Source: Patescibacteria group bacterium (lineage in GTDB: Bacteria; Patescibacteriota; Patescibacteriia; GCA-002772895). From it: a stretch of 41,944 nt of DNA. The position numbers were made by a program, and so were the translations under genes. Positions 3,531 to 37,109 of the stretch are shown piece after piece. The DNA is taken from NCBI GenBank assembly GCA_018895765.1, contig JAHINX010000061.1, positions 1 through 41,944 on the forward strand. Reading direction: 5' to 3'. Numbering within the stretch: position 1 is the stretch's first letter; each line of letters opens with the position of its first letter. Below the pieces are notes generated by a model, which saw only the letters and a program-made list of their open reading frames with translations, did no database searches and was not told where the DNA came from.

Positions 3531-4955
3531 ATGAAAGTTATTATCATGGGTCTGGGTTTATATGAAAAAGGAAGCGGCATTTCTGCCGCCAAGTTTTTTA
3601 TTGAAAAAGGCGACGAAGTTTTGATTACTGACTTAAAAGAGAGAAAGGAGTTGCTGCGTCAGATAAAAGAATTGGAAAAATTTTGCAAGAATCATAATAA
3701 AAAAATGCCCATACTTCATCTTGGTGGACATAAAGAAGATGATTTTAAAAGTGTAGATATTGTGATGCGGAATCCCGGCGTGCCAAAGGATTCGCTTTTT
3801 TTAAAAATCGCGCGAAAAGCCGGAGCGCAAATAGAAACCGATGTTACTATTTTTATGAAAAATTGCCACGCGATGGTTATTGGCGTAACAGGCACCCGTG
3901 GAAAAAGCACCACAGCATCTTTGATCTATGAAATATTGAAAAAATCCCCCCTAACCCCCCTTTGCAAAAGGGGGGAGAAAGGGGGAATTTGGCTTGGCGG
4001 AAATATAAAAATTTCTCCGCTTTCGTTTATAGAAAAAGTTAAGCCAAGCGATATTGTTGTTTTGGAATTTTCAAGCTGGATGCTGGAAAACTTTTCTGAA
4101 TATAAAATTGCCCCGCATATTGCTGTTATCACAAATATTTATCCCGACCATTTAAATACTTACAAAAATATGGCAGAATATATTTCTGCCAAGAAAAATA
4201 TTTTTCAATATCAAAAGGCAGGAGATTATTTAGTTTTAAACGGAGAGAATAGGGAAACGAAAAAATGGAAAGGCTATGGAAAAACAATTTATTTTTATAA
4301 AGAAAATATTAAAAAGTTTTATAAATTGCCCATTAAATTGCAGGGTGAGCATAATTTAGAAAATATTAGCGCGGCATATGCAGTGGTAAAAATTATGAAG
4401 GTGCCAGTAGCAAAGATTGAAAAAGTTTTGAAAAAATTTAACGGCCTCTCCGATAGACAGGAGATAATCGCGCAAAATAAGGGGATAACTTTTGTTAATG
4501 ATACAACAGCTACAACGCCGGACGGAACAATCGCGGCTCTCCGTAGATTTGGCGCGAACCAAGAAATCAAGAAAACAAGAAAACAAAAAAACAAGAAAAC
4601 AAGAAAGCAAGAAAGCAAAAAAATCATCCTAATCTGTGGTGGAAGCGACAAGGGGCTAGACTATAAACAATTTGCAAAAGAAGCAAAAAAATATTGCAAA
4701 GCAGTAATATTTTTTCCGGGAACGGCGACGGAAAAAATAAATTATAAATTATCAATTATCAATTATCAATTAATTATTATGGCGAAAGACATGAACAGTG
4801 CGGTAAAAAAGGCAAGACAACAGGCCATTAGAGGAGATATTATATTATTGTCTCCAGCTGCTGCCAGTTTCGGTTTGTTTAAAAATGAATTTGACAGAGG
4901 AGAGGAATTTAAGAAAGTAGTAACACAGGTAACACAGAAAGAACAGCACAGATAA
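3531..4955 (+). CDS. murD: UDP-N-acetylmuramoylalanine--D-glutamate ligase
   Basis: GVTGTRGKSTT P-loop and C-terminal LLSPAAASFGLFKNEFDRGEEF (MurD signature). Carries three repeat-derived in-frame inserts (see findings). Confidence 0.85.
   Translation: MKVIIMGLGLYEKGSGISAAKFFIEKGDEVLITDLKERKELLRQIKELEKFCKNHNKKMPILHLGGHKEDDFKSVDIVMRNPGVPKDSLFLKIARKAGAQIETDVTIFMKNCHAMVIGVTGTRGKSTTASLIYEILKKSPLTPLCKRGEKGGIWLGGNIKISPLSFIEKVKPSDIVVLEFSSWMLENFSEYKIAPHIAVITNIYPDHLNTYKNMAEYISAKKNIFQYQKAGDYLVLNGENRETKKWKGYGKTIYFYKENIKKFYKLPIKLQGEHNLENISAAYAVVKIMKVPVAKIEKVLKKFNGLSDRQEIIAQNKGITFVNDTTATTPDGTIAALRRFGANQEIKKTRKQKNKKTRKQESKKIILICGGSDKGLDYKQFAKEAKKYCKAVIFFPGTATEKINYKLSIINYQLIIMAKDMNSAVKKARQQAIRGDIILLSPAAASFGLFKNEFDRGEEFKKVVTQVTQKEQHR
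3941..3990 (-). repeat. G-rich hairpin element, family A, inverted copy inside murD
   Basis: aaaaatcccccctaacccccctttgcaaaaggggggagaaagggggaattt is the reverse complement of the family seen at 17213-17310, 19410-19455 and 35907-35953. Translated in frame as SPLTPLCKRGEKGGI. Confidence 0.7.
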
Positions 4956-5016
4956 CACAGATAACACAGATTTTTAAGACACAGATAACACAAATTTTTA
5001 AGACATAGATAACACC
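4921..5016. repeat. tandem repeat (cagataaca units, about 24-nt higher-order unit) spanning the murD stop codon
   Basis: cacagataacacagatttttaaga / cacagataacacaaatttttaaga / catagataacac. The murD TAA and its last roughly 10 codons (VTQVTQKEQHR) lie inside the repeat. Confidence 0.8.
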
Positions 5017-5116
5017 CCAGTAGTAGAGCAAAGCTCACTACGGGGCAGGCAGATATGCGCTCGCCTCGCTTCGCGGTCGAAGCGGGCTTCGCGCTATTAA
5101 AAAATCCCGCATTATT

Positions 5117-5536
5117 CTAAGCGGGATTTTGTGGTAGATCAAACTGTTCCAAAATAACATCATAGGCCTCTTTTTTAATGGGCCCGCGTGTTTTTAATGA
5201 AAAAGAAAAAAGTATATAGCATTTATTGTCTGTCCCTACATAACCGACACGCATTTCCTGGTCGTCATATCTTCCTAAAAGATGCATTGCAAAGCCGGGT
5301 CTGGGTTTCGGCATAAGAGTCGCCTTATCCATTTCATTTTTATTAGTATGAATAAAGACGACAAAGATATCGTTCTTATCGTCTGCGCAAATTGCGGCCA
5401 ATCTTTTGCCATTTTTAAATAACTTGTATTCAAAGATAGTATTCGCTATAATCTTTAGCTTTCCATCTAGGAATAATCTTTCTTTTTCATCTTGTCTGAC
5501 TTTTGTTACTTCGTTTTTTGGCACGATTTCCTCCAT
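5117..5536 (-). CDS. hypothetical protein (orphan cassette)
   Basis: 139-aa ORF. Upstream minus-strand promoter TTGACA(5606-5601)-17-TAGTAT(5583-5578). The stop codon lies inside the hairpin aatcccgc/gcgggatt, which is followed by a T-run. The start could instead be the GTG 12 nt downstream, just after GGAGG. Confidence 0.6.
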   Translation of the reverse strand: MEEIVPKNEVTKVRQDEKERLFLDGKLKIIANTIFEYKLFKNGKRLAAICADDKNDIFVVFIHTNKNEMDKATLMPKPRPGFAMHLLGRYDDQEMRVGYVGTDNKCYILFSFSLKTRGPIKKEAYDVILEQFDLPQNPA

Positions 5537-8901: not shown

Positions 8902-9582
8902 ATGATCGAATTTAAAAATGTTTCAAAAATTTATCCGCCGGATTTTGTTGGCGTGAAAAATATAAGCCTCCGCATCCAAGATGGAGAGTTTGTTTCTGTT
9001 ATTGGAAAGTCAGGTAGCGGAAAAACGACACTAGTAAAGCTGTTAATGGCCGAAGAACCCATCTCTCATGGCGAGCTCAAGATTGGAGACGTGGAAGTTA
9101 CGAAAATAAAAAGAAATGAGATTCCCTCTTTGCGCAGACAGATAGGCGCGGTTTTCCAGGATTATAAGCTTTTGCCAAGAAAAACAATTTTTGAAAATGT
9201 AGCTTATGCCTTGGAGGTTTGTGGAATAAATAACAAGCGTATAGGCGAAATTGTTCCGCAAGTTCTAAGAGTTGTGGGCCTTGAAGGGAAAGAAGGTAGA
9301 TACCCACTTCAAATATCAGGCGGAGAACAGCAAAGGGCGGCTATAGCCCGGGCTCTTGTTCATAGCCCAAAGCTCTTAGTCGCTGATGAACCGACCGGAA
9401 ATCTTGATGCCTTGAATACGCAAGAGATTATTGAGCTTCTGAAAAAGATAAACAGTCTTGGCACAACGGTCCTTCTGGTTACTCATAATCGCGAGGTAGT
9501 GAATGCATTAAAAAAGCGGGTTGTCACCTTGGACATGGGGATGGTAGTCGGTGATGCCGAGCATGGGAGATATAAGATATAA
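8902..9582 (+). CDS. ftsE: cell division ATP-binding protein FtsE
   Basis: ABC ATPase (GKSGSGKTT, LSGGEQQR, LLVADEPTGNLD) immediately upstream of an FtsX-like permease gene. Confidence 0.85.
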   Translation: MIEFKNVSKIYPPDFVGVKNISLRIQDGEFVSVIGKSGSGKTTLVKLLMAEEPISHGELKIGDVEVTKIKRNEIPSLRRQIGAVFQDYKLLPRKTIFENVAYALEVCGINNKRIGEIVPQVLRVVGLEGKEGRYPLQISGGEQQRAAIARALVHSPKLLVADEPTGNLDALNTQEIIELLKKINSLGTTVLLVTHNREVVNALKKRVVTLDMGMVVGDAEHGRYKI

Positions 9583-9584
9583 GA

Positions 9585-9622
9585 AATGACCAATTTCCCA
9601 AATCCCAATGACCAATGAAGAG
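9585..9622. repeat. heptamer repeat block (aatgacc/caaatcc/caatgac)
   Basis: cccaaatcccaatgaccaatgaag (9597-9620) is identical to 38189-38212. Both copies start at a stop codon. Confidence 0.85.
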
Positions 9623-9641
9623 GGAATGACTAATAAATTAT

Positions 9642-10556
9642 ATGATTTCTAACTTGCAAAAAATATTCAAATTCGGAGCGCAAAATTTTGCCCGTAATTT
9701 TTGGCTGAAAATTTTGACTATCGTAATTTTAACAGTTCTACTTTTGCTAATAAATGGACTTGTGATTATAAATTTTTTGACCAACGAAGCATCTCGTCAG
9801 GTTCAGTCAAAAGTTGATGTCAGTATTTATCTGAAAACAAGTGCGACAAATGAAGAGGCGCAGAGTCTGCGATCTTATCTTATGAGTCTGGCTAACGTAT
9901 CCAATGTAACCTATAAAAGTTCGGATGATGTTTTGAAAGAATTTAAAGAAACGCACAAAGACGACCAAGACATTCTTTCTTCCCTAACGTTTTTAGAGAC
10001 AAATCCTTTCGGCGGGGCTTTAGTCGTGCAAACAGTAAATGTTAATGACTATAATACTGTTTTAAAACAACTCGACACTCCTATTTATGATAAAATAATT
10101 GAGAATAAAGATTTTGGCGACAATGAAAAACTTATTGAAGTAATAAATAGGATGACTAGTTTTGTAAAGCAATTTATAGTTCTAATTAGCCTATTTTTTG
10201 CCCTTATTGCGGTTATTGTGATATTTAACACTATCCGCATGGGGATTGATGCCCATCGCCACGAGATAAGCATAATGCGCCTTGTCGGCGCGGCAAATTG
10301 GTTTGTTAAGGGGCAATTTGTTGTTGAGCTGCTTATCTATAGTACTATTGCTGCTATAGCTTCTCTTATATTAATTTTTCCGATAATATCCGTAATACAG
10401 CCAAATGTGTTGGCATTTTTTAATGGTCAGGCAGGTGATATTTTTGCTTATTACAGGGCAAATATATTCGGGCTGTTTGCTTTGCAATTTGTTGGTATTT
10501 TTGCCTTTTCTTTGCTTTCCGCATGGTTTGCGCTGGGAAGATATTTGAAGAAATAA
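9642..10556 (+). CDS. ftsX: cell division permease FtsX
   Basis: N-terminal TM helix, extracytoplasmic domain, then three C-terminal TM helices. Adjacent to ftsE. Confidence 0.8.
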   Translation: MISNLQKIFKFGAQNFARNFWLKILTIVILTVLLLLINGLVIINFLTNEASRQVQSKVDVSIYLKTSATNEEAQSLRSYLMSLANVSNVTYKSSDDVLKEFKETHKDDQDILSSLTFLETNPFGGALVVQTVNVNDYNTVLKQLDTPIYDKIIENKDFGDNEKLIEVINRMTSFVKQFIVLISLFFALIAVIVIFNTIRMGIDAHRHEISIMRLVGAANWFVKGQFVVELLIYSTIAAIASLILIFPIISVIQPNVLAFFNGQAGDIFAYYRANIFGLFALQFVGIFAFSLLSAWFALGRYLKK

Positions 10557-10621
10557 TCAATGATCAATTTTCAATTATCAACTATGGTGTTCCCGCTATC
10601 GCGGGAACATTATTTAAAACT

Positions 10622-17147: not shown

Positions 17148-17168
17148 CTCCCTTATGGGGAGTTTTTT
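17148..17168 (+). terminator. rho-independent terminator
   Basis: ctccc-ttatg-gggag followed by T6. Confidence 0.65.
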
Positions 17169-17212: not shown

Positions 17213-17310
17213 TTCCTCCCCGTCTTCTCCCCCTTAGGAGAAGGGGGACCCGGGGGGATTTAATAATTTTTAAGTCCCCCCTGCCCTTCTTTTTCAAAGG
17301 AGGGGACTTG
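17213..17310. repeat. family A G-rich hairpin elements, two copies arranged tail to tail
   Basis: tcttctcccccttaggagaagggggacccggggggatttaataat, followed by the inverted copy ttaagtcccccctgcccttctttttcaaaggaggggacttg. Confidence 0.7.
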
Positions 17311-17385
17311 CTGAAACAGCCTCATTTTCCTTAAAAATTATCCACACCTTGCAATTTTTGGCGTATCTGTTTATTATAAATATAT

Positions 17386-17646: not shown

Positions 17647-18195
17647 ATGAAAAAATTCAAAAAAATTATATTATTGGTTTTAATTTTTATCGCCGGTTTT
17701 GGAATCGGCAATGCGGTGAAATATTATTTGGATATGTGGCGCGCCGATATGAGCGTGCAAACATTTTTAAACGCCATTGAAGCGCCGTATAAAAATGATA
17801 ACTATGGCGGAGCAACGCCGGAAGAAACATTTGATATGTATCTCACGGCTTTGAAGAAAGGCGATCTGGAATTGGCAAGTAAGTATTTTGTGATTGGGAA
17901 ACAAGAAAACAGATTAGCTATTTTATCCGATAAAAAGGATAATAATGAGTTGGATGATTATATAGCAAAATTGGAAAATGCAAAAAATACTTGGAAAATA
18001 AAAAAAGATGAATTTTATAATTGGGAAAGCAGGGCGGCGTATGAATATGAGACAGTGGTAGAAAAATTAAAATATATAGAAGTAGAGAATCCAGTTTCAA
18101 AACAATTAGAAAAAGTTGCAGTAAAACCAGGAAAATATAATGAGATAATACATTTTGAAAAAAATAATAACATTTGGAAACTCTATTTATTATGA
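17647..18195 (+). CDS. membrane-anchored hypothetical protein
   Basis: MKKFKKIILLVLIFIAGFGIG anchor. Its stop TGA overlaps the possible ATG of the nuclease ORF (ATGA at 18192-18195). Confidence 0.55.
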   Translation: MKKFKKIILLVLIFIAGFGIGNAVKYYLDMWRADMSVQTFLNAIEAPYKNDNYGGATPEETFDMYLTALKKGDLELASKYFVIGKQENRLAILSDKKDNNELDDYIAKLENAKNTWKIKKDEFYNWESRAAYEYETVVEKLKYIEVENPVSKQLEKVAVKPGKYNEIIHFEKNNNIWKLYLL

Positions 18196-21100
18196 TAAAA
18201 AAATCCTCTTTCTATAAAAAAGGAGGATTTTGGAATTTCAGATTTCAAATTTCAGATTTTAGATTTAATCTGATTAAATTATTTATACCGGTTATTTTGA
18301 TTGCCGGTTTTTTTGTCCCCTATTTTTCTTTTGCTTGGGACAGCCATTTTACCCATCGCGCCTTAACTTATGAAGCGGGAGAATTTTTTAATTATTTTAA
18401 TGATAGCCAACTAAGTGAAGAAGAAATTAATTGGCTGATGCAAGGAGCGCAAGAAGAAGATACTCCTCCGCGCTGGATAAACCATTTTTACAATCCAATA
18501 ACAGGCGAGGGTTGGACAGGCGATAAGCTGGGAGAAAACTCCCCAGGGCTTGTAAAATTTTTAAGCGGATTTTTTCTTTCTTCAAGAACTGCGCTTTCTG
18601 CAAAAAACTGGGCAAAAAACCGTTCCGCCCAAGCTGACTATTCATTATATAAAGGCGACCAAACCTGGCAAAAAGCGATTGATGCCTATTTGGAAGGGGA
18701 TAGAGAATCCGCTTTTGTTGCTTTGGGCCATATTCTTCATCTATTGGAAGATATGACGGTGCCGGACCATACGCGCGGAGACACTCATGCCGGCATTGTT
18801 GGCGACAAAGGAAGCCCCTTGGAAAATTGGGCAAAAGAATATAACAAAGACAAAATTGGCAAATTACAAACAGCAGAGGAATTATATAAGTCAGGCCAGA
18901 AGCCAAAAGATTTTTCAATTTTGGAAAATTATTTTGATTGGAATGCAAAATACAGTAGTGAAAATTTTTTTAGTGAGGATACAATAAATGAAAACTTAAT
19001 AGCTGTTCCAGAGTTAATTATTGGAGAAAATCAGCAAATTTACGGTTATATTAATAATTATCCCGTTTATACGGTAAAAGATAATAAAGAAACTATCAAT
19101 GATCCCCAAATCCTCACCGCTTATTGGCAGCGCCTCTCAAAGCAGGCAGTCATCTCCAGCGCCGGAGTAATAAATCTTTTTTTCAAAGAGGCCGAACGCC
19201 AATCAAAACTTCCGCAAAAAATGACAAAAAAGAGCAATACTACAACAAACACAATTTGGTCGCCATTTGGGGAGCTTACAAAATTATACAATACAGCAGT
19301 TCAGTTCGCGCAAGGTTTTTTCCCGCAAAGCACAAAAGCCGATGAATCGGTAAATGATGAGATTGTCACGTCGCAAGCTAATAGTGGTGACGAACGACTA
19401 TCAGAGCAAGCTTCTCCCCCTTCGGAGAAGGGGGATTTAGGGGGATTTAATAATAACCAATCAACAATAATCAATCAGCAATCAATAATTCCTGACCCGA
19501 CTCCCGCAAGCGAATCAATAACAGAGCCGGAAACAAATTTCTACGTCAGCCAGGTAATAGACGGCGATACGATTACGTTGAATAGCGGAGAAGATGTCCG
19601 TCTAATTGGTATGGATACGCCAGAACGCGGAGAAGAGTGTTTTGAAGAAGCAAAGCAGAAAATGGAATCAATGGTATTGGGCAAGAATATCCGTTTAGAA
19701 AAAGATACAAGTGAAACCGACAAATATAATCGGTTGTTACGTTATATTTATATAGACGGCGTGTTGGTAAATGCCGAGATGCTAAAAGAGGGATATGCGC
19801 ATCTTATGATGATACGGCCGGATACGAAATATTACAGCGCTTTCAAGTCATACGAAGAAGAAGCGAAATTTTTTGAACGCGGATGTTTATTTCAAAAGGA
19901 AGGCGTCGGTGGAGCCGATCCAATAGATGAAACGCCGGTATACACGGGCTGGTCATCAGCCGGCGGGAGTTCTAAGCCGGCGCCTCAAGCGCCAAAGGAA
20001 GAAACGCCGACTTCAACTCCGGAAACCGCCACCAGCACGTTGGAAGTAATTTTGGAAGATATAACTTCAACCTCAACTCCGCAAACTTCAACCTCAACTC
20101 CGCAAACTTCAACCTCAACTCCGGAAACTTCAACCTCAACTCCGGAAACCGCCACCAGCACGTTGGAAATCCCCGAAATTTTGCCAAATATTATTATAAA
20201 TGAAATACAGATTAGCGGAGGTCCGGGTGACACCGATAATGAATTTATAGAATTATATAATAATTCATCTGGCGCAGTTGATATTACTGATTGGAAATTA
20301 TTTAAAAAAACAGAAACGGTGCTGAGTTATAACCCTGATAAACAGCCTCCTGCGGAATATAATCTTGTTTCAAAATTCCCCACGGGCTCAACAATTCCAG
20401 CGAATTCGTATTTTCTTATTGTCCCCAAAAATGCCATTGGTAAACATGCGGATACGAATTATACCAACGGAAGCAATTTTGCCACGAGCGACGATACTCT
20501 TATTATAAGAGATGCGGACGGAAATATTATTGATAAAGTCGGTTTTGGCCTTGCGAATGACTATGAAGTACAACAAACGTATAATCCGCTGGACGGCCAA
20601 AGCATAAGCCGCACAAATTTTATCGACACGAATAATAATTTTAATGATTTTACGGTTTCCAGTTCAACGCCACAAGGGACAAGTAGCACTATGGCAATTG
20701 CGCCAGAACCAGAGCCGGAACCGGTTATTCCACCTGTCGTACCGGAACCGTCGGCGCCAACAATAGCTTGCACTACCTTTACTTACGGTACTCATAACAA
20801 AGAGGAAGGAGAAGCAGACAAAATCGCCGCCGAACCATTTCCGGATTTTTCAAATACATTAACTGTTACATTGGAAGCAGGGAAGACCTACTACACCGAC
20901 GATACAATATCCATTCCTAATAATAGAAAGTTAATAATAGAAGAAGGTGTGGTGTTAAAATTTGGAAGATGGCGCTGGGGAGGATGGATGAACTTTCCAA
21001 TCAGTTTGCGCATTTTAGGAGACCTGGAAGTAAATGGCACTGCTTCAAACCCGGTTATTTTTACAACTTTCCGCGATGACGCGCACGGCGTGGCGATTGA

Positions 21101-21704
21101 TATTTCCGGTTCCGAGCCCGCGCCTGGCGATTGGGGCTCTATACAGATAGAAAGTCCTAATGGTAAAGATATAAAAATTCAGCACGCCAAAATTTATTAT
21201 GCCGGCGGAGCGGCGAGTGCCGCCAATTCTTCCGGTGGCGCAATATTTGTGAATTTTTCGGACGCGGACATAGAGATTTCCGATATAGAAGTTAGCCACA
21301 GCCAGTCAGGCATCTATTCGCGCCTATTCCCGGGCACCCAGCCGAATATTTTAAATAGTAATTTTGAATATAATGCGCTCTGGGGCATATCTGCCCAAGA
21401 AGATAGCGCTATCCGTATAATCGGAAATACATTCCAGTGCAACGGCTTAACCGGCAATTCCGGTACAACCGGTGGAGTGAATGTTGTGGGTAATCCGGAA
21501 AATATTGTGATAGAAAATAATGATTTCATCAATAATAAAATCGGGTTGAATTTTTATAACGATAATCCGGACATAGAATTAAATGCGCAAAATAATTATT
21601 GGGGTGCAGAGTCCGGTCCGTGGCACGAAACAAAAAACCCCGCCGGAGCAGGGGATATAATACAGGGAAATGTAGATTTTAATCCGTGGACAGAAATAAA
21701 ATAG
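18192..21704 (+). CDS. secreted multi-domain nuclease: Zn-dependent PLC/P1-nuclease-like domain, SNase (thermonuclease) domain, TS-rich linker, lamin-tail domain, parallel beta-helix repeats
   Basis: Signal peptide ending FSFA, then mature WDSHFTHRAL and HILHLLEDMTVPDH (PLC/P1 fold). DGDTITL...RLIGMDTPE...YNRLLRY (SNase). IINEIQISG...NEFIELYN (LTD). PbH1-like repeats at the C-terminus. The exact start is uncertain (see findings). Confidence 0.75.
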   Translation: MIKKSSFYKKGGFWNFRFQISDFRFNLIKLFIPVILIAGFFVPYFSFAWDSHFTHRALTYEAGEFFNYFNDSQLSEEEINWLMQGAQEEDTPPRWINHFYNPITGEGWTGDKLGENSPGLVKFLSGFFLSSRTALSAKNWAKNRSAQADYSLYKGDQTWQKAIDAYLEGDRESAFVALGHILHLLEDMTVPDHTRGDTHAGIVGDKGSPLENWAKEYNKDKIGKLQTAEELYKSGQKPKDFSILENYFDWNAKYSSENFFSEDTINENLIAVPELIIGENQQIYGYINNYPVYTVKDNKETINDPQILTAYWQRLSKQAVISSAGVINLFFKEAERQSKLPQKMTKKSNTTTNTIWSPFGELTKLYNTAVQFAQGFFPQSTKADESVNDEIVTSQANSGDERLSEQASPPSEKGDLGGFNNNQSTIINQQSIIPDPTPASESITEPETNFYVSQVIDGDTITLNSGEDVRLIGMDTPERGEECFEEAKQKMESMVLGKNIRLEKDTSETDKYNRLLRYIYIDGVLVNAEMLKEGYAHLMMIRPDTKYYSAFKSYEEEAKFFERGCLFQKEGVGGADPIDETPVYTGWSSAGGSSKPAPQAPKEETPTSTPETATSTLEVILEDITSTSTPQTSTSTPQTSTSTPETSTSTPETATSTLEIPEILPNIIINEIQISGGPGDTDNEFIELYNNSSGAVDITDWKLFKKTETVLSYNPDKQPPAEYNLVSKFPTGSTIPANSYFLIVPKNAIGKHADTNYTNGSNFATSDDTLIIRDADGNIIDKVGFGLANDYEVQQTYNPLDGQSISRTNFIDTNNNFNDFTVSSSTPQGTSSTMAIAPEPEPEPVIPPVVPEPSAPTIACTTFTYGTHNKEEGEADKIAAEPFPDFSNTLTVTLEAGKTYYTDDTISIPNNRKLIIEEGVVLKFGRWRWGGWMNFPISLRILGDLEVNGTASNPVIFTTFRDDAHGVAIDISGSEPAPGDWGSIQIESPNGKDIKIQHAKIYYAGGAASAANSSGGAIFVNFSDADIEISDIEVSHSQSGIYSRLFPGTQPNILNSNFEYNALWGISAQEDSAIRIIGNTFQCNGLTGNSGTTGGVNVVGNPENIVIENNDFINNKIGLNFYNDNPDIELNAQNNYWGAESGPWHETKNPAGAGDIIQGNVDFNPWTEIK
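19410..19455 (+). repeat. family A G-rich hairpin element inside the nuclease ORF, followed by caatcaa heptamers
   Basis: cttctcccccttcggagaagggggatttagggggatttaataat is translated as SPPSEKGDLGGFNNN. The following caatcaa caataat caatcag caatcaa is translated as QSTIINQQSII. Confidence 0.7.
20064..20147 (+). repeat. 4 x 21-bp coding tandem repeat (TSTSTPQ/E)
   Basis: acttcaacctcaactccgcaa x2 and ...ccggaa x2, flanked by a 33-bp direct repeat tcaactccggaaaccgccaccagcacgttggaa (20013-20045 and 20137-20169). Confidence 0.9.
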
Positions 21705-23793: not shown

Positions 23794-23846
23794 ACAACAA
23801 AAAAGACAATACCCCTAAGCGAACATGTTTGCCGGGGGATTTTTTA
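23794..23846 (+). ncRNA. candidate about 50-nt small RNA or uvrB leader/attenuator
   Basis: The consensus promoter is followed by the hairpin cccc-taa-gcgaa-catg-tttgc-c-gggg and then gattttttag. Confidence 0.3.
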
Positions 23847-23929
23847 GTAGCTGGCTTCAAATTTTGGATTCGCCGGCTGGCGGAGAGCAAAATTTGATTA
23901 GCAGCTGCTAACCCCGCCCTAATTTTGTA
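23841..23929 (+). repeat. family E long-hairpin element ending in TAACCCCGC
   Basis: tagctggcttcaaattttg...caaaatttgattagcagctgctaaccccgccc. An inverted homolog lies at 26152-26227. Confidence 0.7.
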
Positions 23930-24010: not shown

Positions 24011-25999
24011 ATGAAATTTAAACTAAAATCAAAATATAAGCCGGCAGGCGACCAGCCAAAGGCGATTGAGGCTTTATTGGAGGGTTTAAAAAAGGGGATG
24101 CGCGCGCAAACACTTTTGGGAATTACCGGCTCCGGAAAAACTTTTACCATGGCTAATGTTATCGCAAAGATAAATCAGCCTACTCTTGTAATTGCGCACA
24201 ATAAAACTCTTGCCGCCCAGCTTTGTCAGGAGTTTCGCGAATTTTTTCCGGAAAATGCAGTGCATTATTTTGTCTCTTATTACGATTATTATCAGCCCGA
24301 AGCGTATATTCCGACAAGCGACACTTATATAGATAAGGAAGCAATGATAAATGATGAGATAGATCGTTTGCGCCATGCGGCCACTCAGTCGCTTCTCTCG
24401 CGCAGAGATGTAATAATAGTAGCTTCGGTTTCCTGTATCTATGGTCTTGGCGCGCCGGAAACATATGAAAAAATAAATCTGCATTTAAAAATCGGGGACG
24501 AATTTCTCCGTGATGATCTCATTCGGCGCCTTATTGATATGCAGTTTGAACGCACTAATTCCGATCTGACCCGCGGACATTTTCGTCTTCGCGGAGATGT
24601 TTTGGAAATAATGCCGATCAGTGAAGAAATCATCTATCGTATAGAGTTTAGCGCCTTAGGAAAAAACAATAGCGTGAATAATATTGTCCTTATTGACCCT
24701 GTCACGCGGAAAATAAAATCAAAAGAACAGAGCGCTTGGATTTTTCCGGCAAAGCATTTTATAACAAAAGAAAGCGAAAGAAAAAAATCCCTGAAAGAGA
24801 TAAATATAGAGCTTGAAAAACAATTAAAAATTTTTGAACGTGAAGGAAAGTTATTGGAAGCCGAACGTCTGGCGCGCCGGACAAAAAACGATATAGAAAT
24901 GATACGCGAGCTGGGGTATTGTCATGGGATAGAAAATTATTCTCGCCACTTATCCGGTAGAAAGGCGGGCGAATCGCCGGACACTCTTTTGAGTTATTTT
25001 CCAAAAACTTTTTTAACAATTATCGATGAGTCGCATGTCACTATTCCGCAAATTGGCGGGATGTATGAGGGTGACGCTTCCAGGAAACGGACGCTTATTG
25101 AATATGGCTTCCGTTTGCCGTCTGCCGCCGACAACCGTCCACTTAAGTTTCCGGAATTTTTGGCGCGGACAGGACAGATGATTTTTACTTCTGCCACCCC
25201 GAGTACTTATGAAAAAGAAAATAGTGAGCAGATAGTAGAGCAGATTATTCGCCCTACCGGACTCATAGACCCGAAGATTACAATTTGTCCTATAACTGAA
25301 ACAGAAAAAAATCTTTCGCAAGTTGATGACCTCTTGAAGCGCGTAAAAGAAAAAGTTGAAAAAGGGGAGCGCATATTGGTAACGACCCTTACAAAAAAAA
25401 TGGCTGAAGATTTATTTCAGTATTTGCATGAAGAGAAAATAAAAGCCAATTATATTCATAGTGATGTAAAAGCCCTGGATCGTATTAAAATTTTGACTGA
25501 TTTTCGCAGAGGAAAGTTTGATTGTTTAGTTGGAGTAAATCTTCTCCGCGAAGGGCTGGATTTGCCGGAAGTGACAATGGTGGCAATTTTGGATGCGGAT
25601 AAAGAAGGATTTTTGCGGAGCGAAACCGCGCTTATCCAAACAATTGGTCGGGCGGCAAGAAATGTTTTGGGCGAAGTTATTCTTTATGCCGACAATATGA
25701 CCGGTTCTATGCGCCGTGCGTTTGACGAAACAGAACGGCGCCGTTTTTTGCAACTGGCATATAATAAACGCCACAACATCACCCCGCAGACGATTATAAA
25801 GAATATCAAAAATATTTTGCCGGAAATAATGGAAACAGAAAAGCAAGAAGATGCGCCAATAAAGGGTAGAAATATAAAACAAATTATTTCTGAAAAAGAG
25901 CGCCAGATGAAAGATTCGGCGAGCCGGTTGGATTTTGAAACCGCGGCCATTCTGCGTGATGAGGTAAGGATTCTGAAAAAGAAATCCCGGAATCATTAA
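24011..25999 (+). CDS. uvrB: excinuclease ABC subunit B
   Basis: 662 aa. GITGSGKTFTMA, the YYDYYQPEAY beta-hairpin region, helicase motifs and a C-terminal UVR domain. Confidence 0.95.
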   Translation: MKFKLKSKYKPAGDQPKAIEALLEGLKKGMRAQTLLGITGSGKTFTMANVIAKINQPTLVIAHNKTLAAQLCQEFREFFPENAVHYFVSYYDYYQPEAYIPTSDTYIDKEAMINDEIDRLRHAATQSLLSRRDVIIVASVSCIYGLGAPETYEKINLHLKIGDEFLRDDLIRRLIDMQFERTNSDLTRGHFRLRGDVLEIMPISEEIIYRIEFSALGKNNSVNNIVLIDPVTRKIKSKEQSAWIFPAKHFITKESERKKSLKEINIELEKQLKIFEREGKLLEAERLARRTKNDIEMIRELGYCHGIENYSRHLSGRKAGESPDTLLSYFPKTFLTIIDESHVTIPQIGGMYEGDASRKRTLIEYGFRLPSAADNRPLKFPEFLARTGQMIFTSATPSTYEKENSEQIVEQIIRPTGLIDPKITICPITETEKNLSQVDDLLKRVKEKVEKGERILVTTLTKKMAEDLFQYLHEEKIKANYIHSDVKALDRIKILTDFRRGKFDCLVGVNLLREGLDLPEVTMVAILDADKEGFLRSETALIQTIGRAARNVLGEVILYADNMTGSMRRAFDETERRRFLQLAYNKRHNITPQTIIKNIKNILPEIMETEKQEDAPIKGRNIKQIISEKERQMKDSASRLDFETAAILRDEVRILKKKSRNH

Positions 26000-26151
26000 C
26001 ATTGGCGGAAATAATAGCTTTGGACTTCAAAATTTGAAGTCAGCCTACCCCGCGCCAAAGCCCGAACAGAATCTACTTTATCCTTTTGGATATCGGCTCG
26101 GAATCGCCTAACGGCTTACACCAACTAAAAATAATATCTTTCAAACGGCTT

Positions 26152-26227
26152 GGTGCGGGGTTAATAACTGCTGGTCAAATTTTGTTCGTCCTTTGGACTT
26201 CAAAATTTGAAGCCAGTTATTAAAAAA
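26152..26227 (-). repeat. family E long-hairpin element (inverted relative to 23841-23929)
   Basis: Its reverse complement is tttttaataactggcttcaaattttgaagtcc...caaaatttgaccagcagttattaaccccgcacc. A shortened third copy lies at 26015-26058. Confidence 0.7.
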
Positions 26228-26252
26228 AGCCCCGCTCAAATGAGTCGGGGCT
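26222..26252 (-). terminator. rho-independent terminator of the minus-strand GC-rich unit
   Basis: The minus strand reads agccccg-actcatttgag-cggggct followed by T7. Confidence 0.75.
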
Positions 26253-27685: not shown

Positions 27686-30340
27686 ATGCAGGATAAGATA
27701 ATTATAAAAGGCGCGCGTGAGCACAATCTGAAAAATATTAGTTTGGAGCTTCCGCGCAATAAGCTGATCGTTTTTACGGGATTATCCGGTTCGGGAAAAT
27801 CGAGCCTGGCTTTTGATACTATTTTTGCCGAAGGCCAGCGCAGGTATATTGAGTCGCTATCGGCATATGCCCGGCAGTTTTTGGGAAAGATGGATAAGCC
27901 GGATGTTGATGAAATAGAAGGTCTTGCGCCGGCAATTTCCATTGATCAAAAAGCCCATAGCGCAAACCCGCGTTCAACCGTGGCGACCATTACCGAAATT
28001 TATGATTATTTGCGCGTCCTCTTTGCTCGCGTGGGAGAACCGTTTTGTCCAGTTTGCAAAAAGAAAATTCAAAAAATGACTGTCCAGGAAATGGTGGATG
28101 TAACGCTAGAAAAATTGGAAAAAGAAAAAATAAAAAGCGAAGATAAACTAATTATTTTATCTCCAATTATTCGTGGCCGAAAAGGCGAATATTATCAGCT
28201 TCTTTATGATTTATATAATAAAGGTTTTAGTGAAGTCGCGGTTGACGGAAAAATGCATAAGCTTAGTGGAACGATAAAATTATCCCGTTATAAACGGCAC
28301 GATATTGATTTGGTTATCAGAAAATTAACCATCGCATATCCGATCCATGATAATAAAGTTTTGCAAAAAGAATTATCCGAAGCAATAGAAACTTCTTTAG
28401 AAGAGTCGGACGGTTTGGTAAAAATTATTATGCCGGGGACGTCTGTCATTGCGAGGAGTCCGTACTCGGAGGACGTGGCAATCTCACTGCAAAAAGATAG
28501 GATTGCTTCGTCGCAGAATTCTCCATTTTCCGTCAAGGCTACGAACGGCACGCAGAATGACGTTTTATTACTTTCGTCAAAATATTCTTGCCCGAATGAT
28601 AATTTTGCTTTTCCGGAAATAGAACCGCGTCTTTTTTCATTTAATAGTCCATACGGCGCTTGTGAATATTGTCATGGAATTGGAACGAAATTTATTTTTT
28701 CTGACGAAATATGCCCAAAGTGTCTTGGTAAGCGCCTAAAAATAGAAGCGCTTCATGTTTTAATCGGCGGAAAAAATATTAATGATGTTGTTAATATGTC
28801 GATAAGCGAAGCAGTAGAGTTTTTTAGTGGATTAAAATTATCCGCAAAACAAAAAGAAATTGCCGAAGCCGCGCTCCGCGAAATAAAAAACCGCCTTACT
28901 TTTATGCTTGATGTTGGGCTTAATTATCTAACATTGAATAGAAAGGCTGGCACCTTGTCTGGCGGAGAAGCACAAAGAATCCGGCTTGCTTCGCAAGTTG
29001 GCTCACGTCTTGTCGGCGCGCTCTATGTTCTTGATGAGCCGACAATCGGGCTTCACCAGCGTGACAACGAGCGTTTGCTTGAAACGTTATCTGAGCTCCG
29101 CGATATCGGCAATACGGTGATTGTAGTTGAGCATGATGAAGATACAATCTTAATGAGTGATTATATGGTTGATATAGGTCCTGGCGCCGGTAAAAACGGT
29201 GGAGAAATAGTTGCATCAGGCACGTTGCAGGAGGTTTTGAAAAATAAAAATTCTTTGACCGCAAAATATCTCCGCGGAGAATTAAAAGTGCCAATGCCCG
29301 AGACGCGCAGAAAAAATATTAAAGAAAAAATTGTAATTTCCGGCGCGACCGAGCATAATCTGAAAAATATAAAAATTGAAATTCCCTTGAAAAAATTTGT
29401 TTGTCTTACCGGCGTTTCCGGTTCCGGTAAATCAACGGTGATGAATGACATTTTATACCGCGCGGCTTCCAAAAAAATAAACCATTCAGGGGTTAGGCCG
29501 GGCGCATATAAAAAAATAGAAGGCCTCTCGCATATTGATCGCGTGATTGTTGTTGACCAGTCGGCAATTGGTAGAACTCCGCGTTCCAATCCGGCAACTT
29601 ATACCGGATGTTGGACACATGTCCGCGAACTTTTTTCCACTACGCCCGAAGCGCGGGCGCGTGGGTATAAAATCGGACGTTTCAGTTTTAACCGCCCGGG
29701 TGGAAGATGCGAACACTGCGAAGGTAATGGCACGATTGCTATTGAAATGCATTTTTTGCCGACAGTTTATGTAAAATGCGATGTTTGTAAGGGCAAGCGG
29801 TTTGACCGCGAAACATTGGAGATAAAATATAAAGGGAAGAATATTGCTGATATTTTGGATATGGAAATAGATGAAGCCGATGGATTTTTCAAGAATATTC
29901 CGCAGATATCCGACAAGCTGAAAGTTTTGCGCCAAGTCGGTTTGGGCTATTTGGAACTCGGCCAGGGCGCGCCGACCTTGTCTGGCGGAGAAGCGCAAAG
30001 AGTGAAATTGGCAAAAGAGCTTTCAAAATATTATTCTCTTCGTTTCCGTCAAGGCCTGTCGCGTTCGCTTTATCTTTTGGATGAGCCGACAGTCGGCCTC
30101 CATTATGACGATATAAAAAAGCTTGTCGCGGTTTTGCAAGAGCTTGTTTCCGCGGGAAATACAGTTCTAATTATTGAACATAATCTTGATATAATAAAAA
30201 ATGCGGATTATATTATTGACCTTGGTCCGGAGGGCGGGGATAAAGGTGGAGAGGTTATTGCAACTGGTACACCGGAAGAGGTGGCGCGGATGCCCAGATC
30301 ATATACGGGGCAATACTTGCGAAAAGTTTTGGGGGTTTAG
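27686..30340 (+). CDS. uvrA: excinuclease ABC subunit A
   Basis: The start is set at [18 protein letters not shown]. Two ABC modules ([26 protein letters not shown] x2) and zinc-finger Cys clusters. Confidence 0.95.
28445..28561 (+). mobile_element. family C MITE-like element, 117 bp, in frame inside uvrA
   Basis: gtcattgcgaggagtccgtactcggaggacgtggcaatctc...cgcagaatgac, with terminal inverted repeats. The first roughly 40 nt match 32027-32066. Translated as [39 protein letters not shown]. Confidence 0.75.
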
Positions 30341-30773: not shown

Positions 30774-32015
30774 ATGTTTAGTAAAAAAATGGCAAAAGCA
30801 TTAAATAACCTACCTGACAAGCCCGGCGTATATCTTTTTAAAGATAATCGTGGGGAAATTATTTATGTTGGCAAAGCCGGCTCATTAAAGCGGAGAGTAA
30901 AATCATATTTTGCGCGGGCAGGGGACAGAAAAACAGAAGCGCTTGTTTCGGAAGCTATTGATTTGGAAATCCGCGAAACGCCATCTGTTCTTGAAGCTCT
31001 GATTTTGGAAGCGGAACTTATAAAAAGATTAAAACCAAAATACAACATCCGCGATAAAGACGATAAGTCATTTATTTATGTCGGCATCACGCGGGAAGAT
31101 TTTCCAAAACCGATATTGGTGCGCGGGCATGAGTTGCAAGCTATGAATTCTAAGTTTCAAGTTTCTTTTGGGCCGTTTACCAGCGCCGGCGCGCTCCGTG
31201 AAGCGTTAAAAATTTTGCGCGGAATTTTTCCTTGGTCAGAGTGTAAACCAAACCAAAACAAACCATGTTTTTATTATGGCATTAAAAAATGTCCCGGTGT
31301 ATGCGTTGGCAAAATCAGTAAAAAAGATTATCAGAAAAACATTTCAGGTTTAAAATTATTTTTTCGCGGGAAGAAGACGCAAATTATAAAAAATCTGGAA
31401 CGCGAAATGAAAGAGGCTTCAAAAGATCGCGAGTTTGAGCGCGCGGCTGAATTTCGCAATAGGATTTATGCCCTAAACCATATTCATGATATTTCTTTGA
31501 TAAAAAAAGACGATTTTATGAACTGTAGGGCTCCCGAAGCCCTACAGCATAAAGCAATGGGCAGAATTGAGGGGTATGATATATCCAATATCAGCCAAAA
31601 GCTGGCAACCGGTTCTATGGTCGTTTTTAGAGATGGCGCGCCGGAAAAAAAAGAATATAAAAAATTTCGCATAAAAAATACCAAGTCCGGCGACGTGCCA
31701 ATGCTTCGCGAGGTTTTGACGCGCAGATTTAAAAATAATTGGCCAAGTCCTGATATAATTTTGATTGATGGAGGAGAAGCGCAGGTTGGCGTTGCGGAAA
31801 AAGTTTTGAAGGCAAACAAATTGAATATTCCGGTTATTGGCATTGCCAAGGGGATCTCCAGAAAAAACGACCGTTTTGTTTTTGATTATAATGACCAGGA
31901 ATTGAAAAGAATAACTAAAATTTTTGAAAATTTATTTAAACAGGTTCGCGATGAAGCGCATCGTTTTGCGATTGGCTACCATAGAAGTTTGCGGAAAATA
32001 AAACGGCCGTTATAA
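30774..32015 (+). CDS. uvrC: excinuclease ABC subunit C, short form without the C-terminal (HhH)2 domain
   Basis: GIY-YIG (PGVYLFKDNRGEIIYVGKAGSLKRRV), a UVR domain (FERAAEFRNRI) and an endonuclease domain (IEGYDISN...DGGEAQ...RDEAHRFAI). It ends after 413 aa. Confidence 0.85.
   Translation: MFSKKMAKALNNLPDKPGVYLFKDNRGEIIYVGKAGSLKRRVKSYFARAGDRKTEALVSEAIDLEIRETPSVLEALILEAELIKRLKPKYNIRDKDDKSFIYVGITREDFPKPILVRGHELQAMNSKFQVSFGPFTSAGALREALKILRGIFPWSECKPNQNKPCFYYGIKKCPGVCVGKISKKDYQKNISGLKLFFRGKKTQIIKNLEREMKEASKDREFERAAEFRNRIYALNHIHDISLIKKDDFMNCRAPEALQHKAMGRIEGYDISNISQKLATGSMVVFRDGAPEKKEYKKFRIKNTKSGDVPMLREVLTRRFKNNWPSPDIILIDGGEAQVGVAEKVLKANKLNIPVIGIAKGISRKNDRFVFDYNDQELKRITKIFENLFKQVRDEAHRFAIGYHRSLRKIKRPL
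31521..31547 (+). repeat. family B 27-nt hairpin element in uvrC
   Basis: aactgtagggctcccgaagccctacag. Stem gtagggct/agccctac, loop cccga. Translated as NCRAPEALQ. Confidence 0.85.
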
Positions 32016-32026
32016 AACCTCTTTCC

Positions 32027-32131
32027 GTCATTGCGAGAAGTGCGTACTCGCGCGACGTGGCAATCCCGTCTAAAATGAGATTGCCACGCCCCGCTCCAGT
32101 TTTGAAGAACTGGATCTGGACTCGCAATGAC
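32027..32131 (+). mobile_element. family C MITE-like element, intergenic copy directly after the uvrC stop
   Basis: gtcattgcgagaagtgcgtactcgcgcgacgtggcaatccc...ctcgcaatgac. Flanked by the imperfect direct repeats aacggccgttataaaac (32002-32018) and aacggcctcataaaac (32149-32164). Confidence 0.75.
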
Positions 32132-35153: not shown

Positions 35154-35507
35154 ATGGTAAAAAGAAAAATAAAAAAACAAAAATTTGAATTTAGGAGACA
35201 AAGAGGCCGGGCAAAAAAAGGAAAATTACCCGTTTTCCGATTTAATATTTTTGCTGTTGCACTTGCGCTTGTTTTTTTAATTGGTAATCTTGTTATTATT
35301 AACAGCATCACGGAAAATGGATACAAAATGAAAAAAATGAAAGAAGATTTAATGGACTTGAAAAATAAAAAACAAGAATTAAGTTTAGAAATCTCCGAAA
35401 GGCAATCAATGGAAAATGTTCTGTCAAAAGTGGAAGATTTGGGTTTGGTAAAAGCCGATAAAATAGAATATATAGAGGGCTCCGCAAGTGCGATGGTGAA
35501 AAGATAA
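35154..35507 (+). CDS. cell division protein FtsL-like
   Basis: Basic N-terminus, one TM helix, then a coiled coil. It sits directly after rsmH, as in dcw clusters. Confidence 0.6.
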   Translation: MVKRKIKKQKFEFRRQRGRAKKGKLPVFRFNIFAVALALVFLIGNLVIINSITENGYKMKKMKEDLMDLKNKKQELSLEISERQSMENVLSKVEDLGLVKADKIEYIEGSASAMVKR

Positions 35508-35544
35508 CACCTAACACCTAACATTTAACACCTAACATTTAACA
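35505..35544. repeat. heptamer tandem repeat (taacacc/taacatt) starting at the ftsL-like stop codon
   Basis: taacacc taacacc taacatt taacacc taacatt taaca. A TAA every 7 nt gives stops in all three frames. Confidence 0.9.
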
Positions 35545-35630
35545 TGCCCCCGCTTTAGCGGGATTTTTTGTTTTTAACGATTTTAGATATCTCTTGCAAA
35601 AAAGCATATTTTAAGATAATATTATATAAT

Positions 35631-37109
35631 ATGCCATACAAAAAATATAAAAAGATTCATTTTATAGGGATTGGCGGAATAGGCGTAAGCGCTGTTGCTA
35701 AGTGGGCGCTTTTGGAAGGCGTGGAGGTGAGCGGTTCCGATGTGGAAAATACAGAAATAACGAGTGAGCTTCAAAAAATGGGAGCCAAAATTTTTATTGG
35801 TCATAAAGAAAAAAACATTGCGCGTGATATTGACTTAATTGTTTATTCTTCGGCCGTGCCAGCCACAAATCCTGAACGCTCGGTTTTGAGACGGATACGC
35901 CACAGCAAGTCCCTTCCTTTGGAAAAGGAAGGACAGGATGGATTTAATAATGATTTAATTCCCCAGAAATCATATTTCGAATTTTTGGGAGAAATAACCC
36001 GTGGGAAAAAATTGATTGCAGTGTCAGGGACTAATGGCAAGAGCACGACAACGGCAATGCTGGGAAAAATTTTGATTGACGCCGGTCTTGACCCACTTGT
36101 TATCGTCGGTTCAAAAATAAATGTTTTTTCGCACGGCAATTTTAATTATGGAAAAGGGGAATACGCAGTCGTGGAGGCATGCGAGCATAACGCGCATATG
36201 TTGAATCTGCATCCATGGTCAATCGTTCTTACAAATATAGAAGCAGATCATTTGGATTTTTATAAAAATTTGGACAATATTCTGGAAGCGTTTAAAAAAT
36301 ATGTCGCCAAGATAGAAAAAGGATGTTTTCTAATATATAACGGCGATGATAAAAATAGCGCCGAGGTGGCAAAAACTCACGCTTGCCGTCTTATTTCCTA
36401 TGGCGTGCATGAAGATGCGGACTTGCGGTTTGAAGAGCGCCATATCGATAAAGGCACACAGATTTTTCAAACAAAAACTGTAGGGCTCCCGAAGCCCTAC
36501 CAGATGGAATTGCAAGTACCTGGGCTTTTTAATGTTTATAATGCGATGGCGGCAATATCTATGGCAAAGGCGCTTGGTATCAAATTTGAGGTAATAAAAA
36601 AATCGCTTGCAAATTTTCGCGGGCTTTGGCGCAGGTTTGAGCACGTTGGAGAATATAATGGCGCGCCAATTATTTCCGATTACGGCCACCATCCGCACGC
36701 GATAGAAGCAACGCTTTTGGCCGCACGCGAATTTTATCCGGATAGAAGAGTTATATTAGCATACGAACCACACCAGCACCATAGGACAAAGGCTCTTTTT
36801 GCCGATTTTGTCCGCAGTTTCGACAAGGCAGATGTTCTTATTTTGGGAGAGATATATAATGTAGAAGGAAGAGTCGAAAAACAAGATTGTGATATATCTT
36901 CGCGCAAACTTGCAGACGCAATTATAAAGTATTGGGAATCGGATGAAAATAAAAAGGAGCGTACAGAGCACGAATTATTTTATTGTGAAAATAATGATGA
37001 AGTTTTGAAAGCGCTGAAAGAGACAATAAACTCCGACGACGTTGTGATAATTATGGGAGCAGGGGGGATTTACAAAGTTGCAAAAAGATTGATTGCCGCG
37101 GATTCCTAG
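35631..37109 (+). CDS. murC: UDP-N-acetylmuramate--L-alanine ligase
   Basis: The start is set at MPYKKYKKIHFIGIGGIGVSAVA. GTNGKSTT and DYGHHPHAIEATL. Carries a family A insert (35907-35953) and a family B insert (36476-36503). Confidence 0.9.
   Translation: MPYKKYKKIHFIGIGGIGVSAVAKWALLEGVEVSGSDVENTEITSELQKMGAKIFIGHKEKNIARDIDLIVYSSAVPATNPERSVLRRIRHSKSLPLEKEGQDGFNNDLIPQKSYFEFLGEITRGKKLIAVSGTNGKSTTTAMLGKILIDAGLDPLVIVGSKINVFSHGNFNYGKGEYAVVEACEHNAHMLNLHPWSIVLTNIEADHLDFYKNLDNILEAFKKYVAKIEKGCFLIYNGDDKNSAEVAKTHACRLISYGVHEDADLRFEERHIDKGTQIFQTKTVGLPKPYQMELQVPGLFNVYNAMAAISMAKALGIKFEVIKKSLANFRGLWRRFEHVGEYNGAPIISDYGHHPHAIEATLLAAREFYPDRRVILAYEPHQHHRTKALFADFVRSFDKADVLILGEIYNVEGRVEKQDCDISSRKLADAIIKYWESDENKKERTEHELFYCENNDEVLKALKETINSDDVVIIMGAGGIYKVAKRLIAADS
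35907..35953 (+). repeat. family A hairpin element (diverged copy) inside murC
   Basis: aagtcccttcctttggaaaaggaaggacaggatggatttaataatgat is translated as KSLPLEKEGQDGFNNDL. Confidence 0.6.
36476..36503 (+). repeat. family B hairpin element in murC
   Basis: aactgtagggctcccgaagccctaccag is translated as TVGLPKPYQ. Confidence 0.85.

Follow-up and report, generated by a model that had tools for sequence, protein, structure and literature searches.

How does one G-rich DNA hairpin come to lie in frame in murC, in murD and in a nuclease gene of a small bacterial genome as well as between its genes, and what allows it to stay there? The question is raised by contig JAHINX010000061.1 of assembly GCA_018895765.1, of which we analysed 41,944 nt (about 39% G+C; hereafter the window) whose MurC and MurD homologues are labelled Patescibacteria or Parcubacteria by their sources. 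The sequence in question, here called the G-run element, occurs in the window in five copies. It is repeated, dispersed, mostly extragenic and hairpin-forming, it is present in some and absent from other close relatives, and its retained genic copies lie in loops or linkers. [quoted passage not shown]

The G-run element and its copies in the window

A preliminary description of this DNA had listed five copies of one family, and all five are present at the coordinates that it gave, with the sequences that it quoted. Copy A (17215..17267, plus strand) is intergenic and lies 3′ of a thymidine kinase gene and of the terminator-like hairpin of that gene; copy D (17262..17313, minus strand) is its inverted partner, and the two form a tail-to-tail doublet. 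The remaining three are in frame, as had also been claimed, with the peptides SPPSEKGDLGGFNNN, KSLPLEKEGQDGFNNDL and SPLTPLCKRGEKGGI read in the open reading frames (ORFs) 18174-21704, 35568/35628-37109 and 3531-4955, respectively. Copy B (19410..19455, plus strand) encodes SPPSEKGDLGGFNNN in the linker preceding the SNase domain of a secreted nuclease of 1176 aa, which Pfam identifies as an SNase and lamin-tail-domain (LTD) protein (18174..21704, plus strand). Copy C (3941..3990, minus strand) lies in murD (3531..4955, plus strand; Pfam MurD-like_N, Mur_ligase_M and Mur_ligase_C) and encodes KSPLTPLCKRGEKGGI, residues 138-152 of MurD. Copy E (35903..35953, plus strand) encodes SKSLPLEKEGQDGFNN at the junction of the N-terminal and central domains of MurC (35628..37109, plus strand, with the ORF start at 35568 or 35628; Pfam MurC), and the whole murC insert, judged against an empty site, spans about 35880-35962. 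The window has few runs of at least five C or G, 33 in total, and 13 of them lie inside the five copies.

The murD insert is not an assembly artefact, because it is identical in an independent assembly (GCA_022012845.1, locus L298) that is 99.97% identical to the window overall. Between ftsE and ftsX the independent assembly carries a tandem duplication of 55 nt (11064-11162 in L298 against 9582-9625 in the window), a small length polymorphism within the population.

The family consensus is T-C5-6-TTT-NNN-AAA-G5-6-N2-5-G5-6-ATTT, in an element of 35-50 nt. Its core is a C5-6TTT/AAAG5-6 hairpin whose loop measures 3 nt; a short spacer separates it from another G run, which ends in ATTT. The full form has in addition an upstream AAAT-C5-6, which pairs with this second G run to give a nested palindrome, and this outer 5′ arm is found in 17 of 166 copies (about 10%). 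Copy C is a full two-tier palindrome, AAATCCCCCC-TAA-CCCCCC-TTTGCAAAA-GGGGGG-AGAAA-GGGGGAATT (AAATC6 ... G5AATT), and copy A is a nested hairpin, CCTCCCCG-TCTTCTCCCCC-TTAG-GAGAAGGGGGA-CCCGGGGGGA, followed by TTTAATAAT and with a 3′ end that reads GGGGGGATTTAATAAT. Copy B is a half form without the outer 5′ arm, made up of the hairpin, an unpaired second G run and ATTTAATAAT, and it is 89% identical to copy A, one being genic and the other intergenic. All five copies fold as hairpins, with modest z-scores against shuffled sequences (−1.1 to −2.5), since C and G runs pair in any shuffled order as well; the 116-nt intergenic doublet of copies A and D folds into three hairpins at −25.8 kcal/mol (z = −3.5).

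In copies D and E the arms are mixed (C/T and G/A). The reverse complement of copy D (CAGCAAGTCCCCTCCTTTGAAAAAGAAGGGCAGGGGGGACTTAAAAATTATT) matches copy E at 44 of 52 positions, including a 5′ CAGCAAG, with 87% identity over 30 nt, and the two form a diverged sub-family; the composite of an A-type and a D-type copy is also found in three metagenome contigs (L133, L143 and L146). The preliminary description had the element ending in GGATTTAATAAT, which holds for three of the five copies (at 17256, 19443 and 35940) and fails for the other two, from which this sequence is absent. Because the 12-nt tail is found in copies A, B and E only, it is a feature of a sub-family and not of the family. With up to one mismatch allowed, it occurs 4 times in the window where 1.2 occurrences are expected, a count attained in 5 of 100 shuffles. 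A fourth exact occurrence, at 6253, has no hairpin and was rejected as a copy, being a chance match.

Membership of one family was assessed with two hidden Markov model (HMM) profiles built without window sequence. The first (nhmmer), from 166 copies in other phyla, clearly matches the murD copy (E = 3e-11), the nuclease copy (4.5e-6) and 17225-17261 (2.6e-4), and gives weak scores at 17289-17306 (E = 0.037) and for the murC copy (0.73), so that copies D and E are not recovered. The second, from 141 hits in metagenome contigs and grown from a scan for the tail sub-family, returns the five copies and no further match in the window: 19412-19454 (copy B, 8e-15), 17225-17267 (copy A, 2.7e-13), 3942-3977 (copy C, 1.5e-9), 35910-35951 (copy E, 1e-5) and 17276-17306 on the minus strand (copy D, 0.0095). 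Both seed sets were fished with patterns taken from the window copies, so part of the profile score is built in; positions outside the search pattern are still conserved, namely the T before the C run (131 of 166) and the arrangement TTT-NNN-AAA. The similarity among the copies, which the preliminary description had asked to be put to formal statistics, thus holds up. At its gathering score Rfam finds only tRNAs in the whole window, and a permissive Rfam scan of about 17150-17350 returns only sub-threshold generic hairpins.

Genic copies and recurrent insertion sites

In an alignment of 24 MurD sequences, the closest orthologue (P0002, 78% identical) has KIKYPRV opposite the KSPLTPLCKRGEKGGI of the window, and the hairpin is missing from the closest murD orthologue locus (L001); a comparison of filled and empty DNA shows about 18 nt replaced by about 48 nt. 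In the closest MurC orthologue (P0122, 81% identical) Q-NKIL stands in place of a segment that is 23 residues longer in the window, and about 9-15 nt of murC DNA are replaced. When solved structures of MurD (3lk7) and MurC (6cau) are included, alignment gaps extend across both segments. The segments are absent from orthologues at 45-50% identity, which belong to other Patescibacteria lineages, and from the solved Mur ligases of other phyla; in Patescibacteria relatives at 60-67% identity, similar hairpins are present at exactly these codons. In the nuclease, the closest homologue (P0241, 54% identical) has an unrelated linker at the position of copy B, and the linker is not conserved.

The preliminary description had further placed the murD copy right after the P-loop helix and the murC copy between the N-terminal and P-loop domains, and AlphaFold models made from these alignments agree with both placements. 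MurD residues 138-152 are modelled as coil between a helix (125-137) and a strand (153-156), with a mean pLDDT of 57 for residues 141-150, and MurC residues 89-111 as coil leading from a helix (81-88) to a strand (112-114), where the pLDDT of residues 90-107 is under 50. Both inserts have confidently modelled flanks, and the inserts themselves are predicted to sit in low-confidence surface loops. MurD thus gains about 10 residues and MurC about 23 in an inter-domain linker, and the nuclease bears the element in the linker ahead of its SNase domain.

The same sites are occupied more than once. Two more distant MurD orthologues (L004 and L006) carry a like hairpin at identical position, orientation and frame, five MurC orthologues have xP(L/F)xKGGxRG(V/I) segments at the site used in the window, and in three of these five (L174, L176 and L177) canonical G-run hairpin DNA lies at the codon of the murC insert. 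Insert-bearing MurC and MurD sequences are scattered over neighbour-joining trees among non-sister lineages, which implies either several gains or many losses. In addition, one UvrC site is taken by the G-run element in L174 and by another hairpin, of the GTAG type, in the window. We read this pattern as that of permissive sites that are repeatedly hit, or repeatedly keep what they receive, even from different repeat families; a targeting mechanism, or homogenisation of sequence between copies, could also lie behind the recurrence.

At least two other hairpin families are read in frame in the window, in uvrA, uvrC, murC and secA. One is a 21-nt perfect hairpin tagged with GTAG, GTAGGGCTCCCGAAGCCCTAC, which occurs in frame at 31525-31545 (uvrC), 36480-36500 (murC) and 39166-39186 (secA) and looks like a classical GTAG-type REP, here inside genes. 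It adds 6 residues to SecA relative to L174 and replaces 9 codons of uvrC relative to L173 with no change in length; in MurC it falls in a beta-hairpin turn (TKTVGLPKPYQ) and is unrelated to copy E. A third family (..GTCATTGCGAG...GACGTGGCAATC..) is present at 28442-28483 in uvrA and at 32024-32065 in the intergenic region after uvrC. The uvrA copy is part of a 44-residue insert that is absent in the closest orthologue (L173), and L174 has a similar insert at the same site.

Other repeats occur in the window as well. Both within genes and at their ends there are AT-rich low-complexity repeats of the AATTATCAA type (3405-3447, 4733-4783, 10545-10587 and 19455-19500), and the stretch just 3′ of copy B in the nuclease gene (NNQSTIINQQSII) is of this kind. 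In MurD such a repeat is read as KINYKLSIINYQLII, where orthologues have I(T/R/K)NYEL(R/L), which suggests from the alignment that this is another repeat-derived segment of the protein. MurD residues 345-360 (4563-4610) form a Lys-rich insert, KKTRKQKNKKTRKQES, that is missing in most orthologues and has a pLDDT below 50, and other MurD orthologues have different repeat-derived peptides at this site, such as RSVIPAKAGI and PPNLPLSKGRKRRGASPSLVKEGLGAV. The nuclease gene contains tandem 21-nt repeats at 20001-20168 that encode TSTSTPQ/TSTSTPE units of a Thr/Ser/Pro linker. Finally, two adjacent inverted-repeat pairs at 23833-23922 and 26150-26234 (39 nt 85% and 38 nt 79% complementary), about 2.3 kb apart, bracket uvrB (24011-25999); they could form a long-range hairpin, delimit an invertible or mobile segment, or be repeat copies at gene ends.

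Distribution of the family and the means of its spread

The G-run element is not special to the genome of the window or to Mur ligases. A scan of one genome per species gave at least 174 matches in at least 120 loci, and the loci listed come from more than 10 phyla, several genomes being matched more than once. They include Desulfobacterota, Nitrospirota, Beta- and Gammaproteobacteria, cyanobacteria, Bacteroidota, Ignavibacteria, Omnitrophota, Chloroflexota, Myxococcota, Acidobacteriota, Patescibacteria and others, with cultured isolates (Calothrix PCC 7716, Iodobacter arcticus, Chromatium okenii and Algoriphagus aquimarinus) among the hosts. The same consensus is found in at least 120 loci of predicted viral contigs, and the sub-family with ATTTAATAAT is represented by 65 copies in 46 metagenome contigs with unrelated flanks.

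Copies from other phyla lie in long open frames in 32 of 133 cases (24%), against 66% of random positions, and those in metagenome contigs in 3 of 49 (6%), against 59%. Inverted tail-to-tail doublets and head-to-tail clusters are frequent, with many plus/minus pairs 20-60 nt apart. The copies in other phyla that are in frame mostly fall between Pfam domains, for example in a GT4 glycosyltransferase of Algoriphagus aquimarinus, in a radical SAM protein, in RlpA and in a polyketide synthase (PKS)-like protein; in RecJ the copy is an insert within the DHH domain. Some metagenome contigs contain head-to-tail concatemers of hairpin modules that repeat about every 58 nt, and in others the modules recur every 393 nt with identical flanks (L167 102-852, L169 234-618, L160 135-599, L137 9307-9712 and L171 7964-8774); these are mosaics of the G-run family like the bacterial interspersed mosaic elements (BIMEs), or higher-order repeats of it.

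If the element is selfish, as we favour, the five sequences would be copies of a very small (35-50 nt) non-coding DNA repeat whose family increases in number and scatters within a genome and also passes from lineage to lineage, probably travelling as single-stranded hairpin DNA with an enzyme supplied in trans, in the manner of REPs and of their hairpin-forming doublets (REPINs) or of MITEs. Most copies would land or survive between genes, often as tail-to-tail doublets like 17215-17313, and in a gene-dense Patescibacteria genome some would end up inside genes. There they would persist only if the frame is kept, the insert is free of stops and the site is a surface loop or an inter-domain linker, with the C and G runs translated as flexible loops rich in Pro, Gly, Lys and Ser, of the xPLxKGGxxGG type. 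No host function would be required for retention.

Several observations weigh against this reading. The preliminary description spoke of an element that colonises genes; mobility may be deduced from copies with unrelated flanks and from filled and empty sites, but transposition itself was not seen, and no mobilising enzyme was identified. Target-site duplications are not visible at the few sites that can be compared (one empty and three filled for murD, one empty and four filled for murC), and filled and empty sites differ by replacement and not by clean insertion; the absence of duplications fits single-strand transposition of the HUH type and recombinational spread alike. Among the 120 loci listed, an all-against-all clustering of ORFs found no neighbouring gene family that dominates: the large clusters are ABC transporters and response regulators, which are common families, and only a small cluster of DUF559 genes adjoins the elements. 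REP-type repeats are normally lineage-specific, and the near-identical consensus across phyla is unusual for such repeats and could instead reflect a function in common. The neighbour-joining trees, each of 24 sequences, are crude, and the high genic share in Patescibacteria is biased because murC and murD served to select the relatives that were counted. Tolerance of the element in genes for lack of stops in all frames is also a weak argument, since the effect is modest for the core, which is open in 4-5 of 6 frames against a background of 54%, and fails for copies with a TAATAAT tail, which are open in 2 of 6.

One candidate for an enzyme is a REP-associated tyrosine transposase (RAYT). The start of a RAYT-like Y1 transposase gene, beginning MRDDRYKNFAEGAVYHIYNRGNNKQ, lies at the end of the window (41770-41944), preceded by a hairpin doublet, ACAAGGAACGTCCTTGTAAG (41678-41724), that occurs nowhere else in the window. 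Its orthologue in L174 and L175 (Pfam Y1_Tnp) has the same place after secA, and the L174 gene is flanked on both sides by doublets of TGTCAAAGCCTCCCTTTGCCA, a classic RAYT/REP arrangement whose repeat is unrelated to the G-run element. A RAYT-like gene of Dulcicalothrix (L079) has a G-run doublet about 200 nt upstream and a GTAG-type repeat downstream. Because the repeats flanking these genes are different from the G-run element, RAYT as the mobilising enzyme is unsupported, which is a further point against the reading that we favour.

It is less likely, though possible, that these are real dispersed repeats spread with no dedicated enzyme at all, by recombination, gene conversion or hairpin-templated repair that involves existing copies and AT-rich sites, as has been suggested for the GC clusters of yeast mitochondria, and lost by palindrome-promoted deletion, which would explain both the recurrent occupancy and the untidy junctions. 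The junctions are replacements that lack target-site duplications, the uvrC hairpin replaces 9 codons and leaves the length unchanged, and no transposase is linked to the element. Mitochondrial GC clusters provide a precedent (PMC4478555). The empty murC and murD sites are A/T-rich (AAAATAAA), much like the element's AAAT/ATTT ends, a resemblance that is post hoc because the comparison covered only two empty sites. It is, however, hard for conversion alone to reach new sites in unrelated phyla and in phages.

We consider it unlikely that the element is a functional cis-acting sequence whose placement in Mur genes is selected, either a DNA site that binds a protein or forms a structure, or an RNA hairpin that affects mRNA stability or slows ribosomes at domain boundaries. 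Such a role would suit a consensus that is kept across many phyla and phage contigs, the occupancy of the same codons in several lineages with the same orientation and frame, and the position of in-frame copies of other phyla at domain boundaries. It is at odds with the lack of the hairpin in the closest relatives, with the intergenic position of most copies next to no consistent neighbour and with the want of any Rfam family match, and because the UvrC site is occupied in different lineages by unrelated hairpin families, tolerance is a better fit than any specific function. Despite C>T and G>A differences in both arms, the murC copy still folds into a good hairpin, as a selected structure would; however, the mixed-arm variant is itself a dispersed sub-family, so this copy need not have evolved compensatorily in place.

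A further, doubtful proposal is that the hairpin is the end or partner of a phylum-spanning selfish unit built around a DUF559 gene, which encodes a Vsr-like PD-(D/E)xK endonuclease of about 120 aa. Small DUF559 genes are bracketed by G-run hairpins in Omnitrophota (L087 776-1220), Nitrospirota (L095 3338-3772), a metagenome contig (L144 2131-2598) and Thalassocella (L057 829-1423), and in a viral contig tandem hairpin copies precede the gene (L299 2-544). The unit would be laid out as plus hairpin, endonuclease gene and minus hairpin, an order seen in L087, L095 and L144. Its non-autonomous derivatives or footprints would be the thousands of single or doublet hairpins that have no gene, including those of murC and murD, and phages would be the vehicles that keep the consensus uniform across phyla. 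Among 80 viral-contig DUF559 loci, however, 77 are without the element (L299 has elements, L335 and L336 give weak hits), so the link, if real, would be limited to one sub-clade, and a search of the literature on DUF559 with repeats or mobility brought up no such association. DUF559 could be the autonomous partner, or two selfish elements could share the same intergenic dumps, and we treat it only as a lead.

It is highly improbable that the genic copies are ordinary lineage-specific Pro/Gly loops, written in CCC and GGG codons of a low-GC genome and alike by chance or low complexity, an idea that the modest folding z-scores and the insignificance of the 12-nt tail taken alone might encourage but that is in our view already refuted by E-values of 1e-5 to 8e-15 from models of other organisms and by closest orthologues without the loops, alongside the 89% identity of genic copy B to intergenic copy A and the identical hairpin DNA at non-coding positions of dozens of contigs.

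Selfish repeats of the kind that we favour would bring to Patescibacteria, with a much smaller element, what has been a textbook oddity of Rickettsia, namely palindromic repeats read in frame in essential genes, and would do so with three or more repeat families spread over six genes of a 42-kb stretch and a consensus of about 35 nt that spans many phyla and phage contigs. They could account for Pro/Gly-rich loops and for length variation in proteins of candidate-phyla bacteria, and the inserts mark permissive sites in MurC, MurD, UvrA, UvrC and SecA. For annotation, spurious "hypothetical proteins" and N-termini extended across stop-poor hairpins are to be expected. The main interest lies in the phylum-spanning consensus, in the repeated occupancy of the same codons in essential genes, in several in-frame hairpin families within one small genome and in the mobilising mechanism, and the question raised is which enzyme or process keeps so tiny a repeat uniform across bacterial phyla.

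Comparison with known repeat systems

The sequence of the element is found in none of about 8 million open-access full texts, and it may have been named in a subscription paper (for example, among the Nostoc repeats); the literature on Patescibacteria with palindromic in-frame repeats yielded nothing relevant. The nearest parallel for the genic copies is with the Rickettsia palindromic elements (RPEs; Ogata et al. 2000, 2002), which measure about 100-150 bp, form about ten families, are confined to Rickettsia and encode peptides predicted to be compatible with the protein fold (PMC10969869, PMC5896051). Both are palindromic selfish repeats found in frame in unrelated housekeeping genes of a host-dependent bacterium with a small AT-rich genome; the murD, murC and nuclease copies are read in frame, and the translated murC and murD segments are modelled in surface loops, AlphaFold loop placement being here the counterpart of the fold compatibility predicted for RPEs. 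In contrast to RPEs, and going by their description, the G-run element is 35-50 nt long, is built of C and G runs, occurs in Patescibacteria, many other phyla and phage, and is mostly intergenic.

REPs and REPINs are short (20-40 nt) GC-rich imperfect palindromes mobilised by RAYT, a Y1, IS200-like transposase (PMC3116915), and REPs are tagged GTAG or CGTC at the hairpin foot (PMC3733652). The G-run element is likewise a short GC-rich imperfect palindrome with many, mainly extragenic copies, its inverted doublets are common (17215-17313 in the window; L133, L143 and L146), and a RAYT-like gene is present in the same genome. It differs in that the consensus has no GTAG or CGTC, the RAYT-like genes are not flanked by the G-run repeat, the consensus is common to many phyla, and several copies are intragenic and translated. 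We call the element REP- or RPE-like in its behaviour and count it as a member of neither class; of the defining REP features, the GTAG or CGTC tag and a RAYT gene flanked by the G-run repeat were not found.

Bacterial MITEs, such as the Coxiella QMITEs, ERIC and BOX, sometimes fuse in frame with host ORFs (PMC5896051, PMC10969869, PMC3184786), and in this the G-run element behaves like the MITEs of Coxiella and enterobacteria. The full form of the G-run element has terminal inverted repeats like theirs, AAATCCCCCC ... GGGGGGATTT (AAATC6 ... G6ATTT), but it is shorter than typical MITEs, shows no target-site duplication at the few sites compared and has no known parent insertion sequence (IS) with the same ends. 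The comparison extends to very small hairpin repeats in cyanobacteria, which are themselves among the hosts of the G-run family: the small dispersed repeats (SDRs) of Nostoc punctiforme, which Elhai et al. reportedly described in 2008 as hairpin-associated sequences of 21-27 nt, apparently mobile without a known enzyme, resemble it by description. Mitochondrial GC clusters, too, enter coding regions. In fungi these are 42-nt GC-rich palindromes in AT-rich DNA that propagate, merge, recombine and cross species (PMC4478555), and although they are organellar and unrelated in sequence, they share with the G-run element a length of about 40 nt, a G+C-rich palindrome in a compact A+T-rich genome and, in their merging, a likeness to the concatenated and doublet modules described here.

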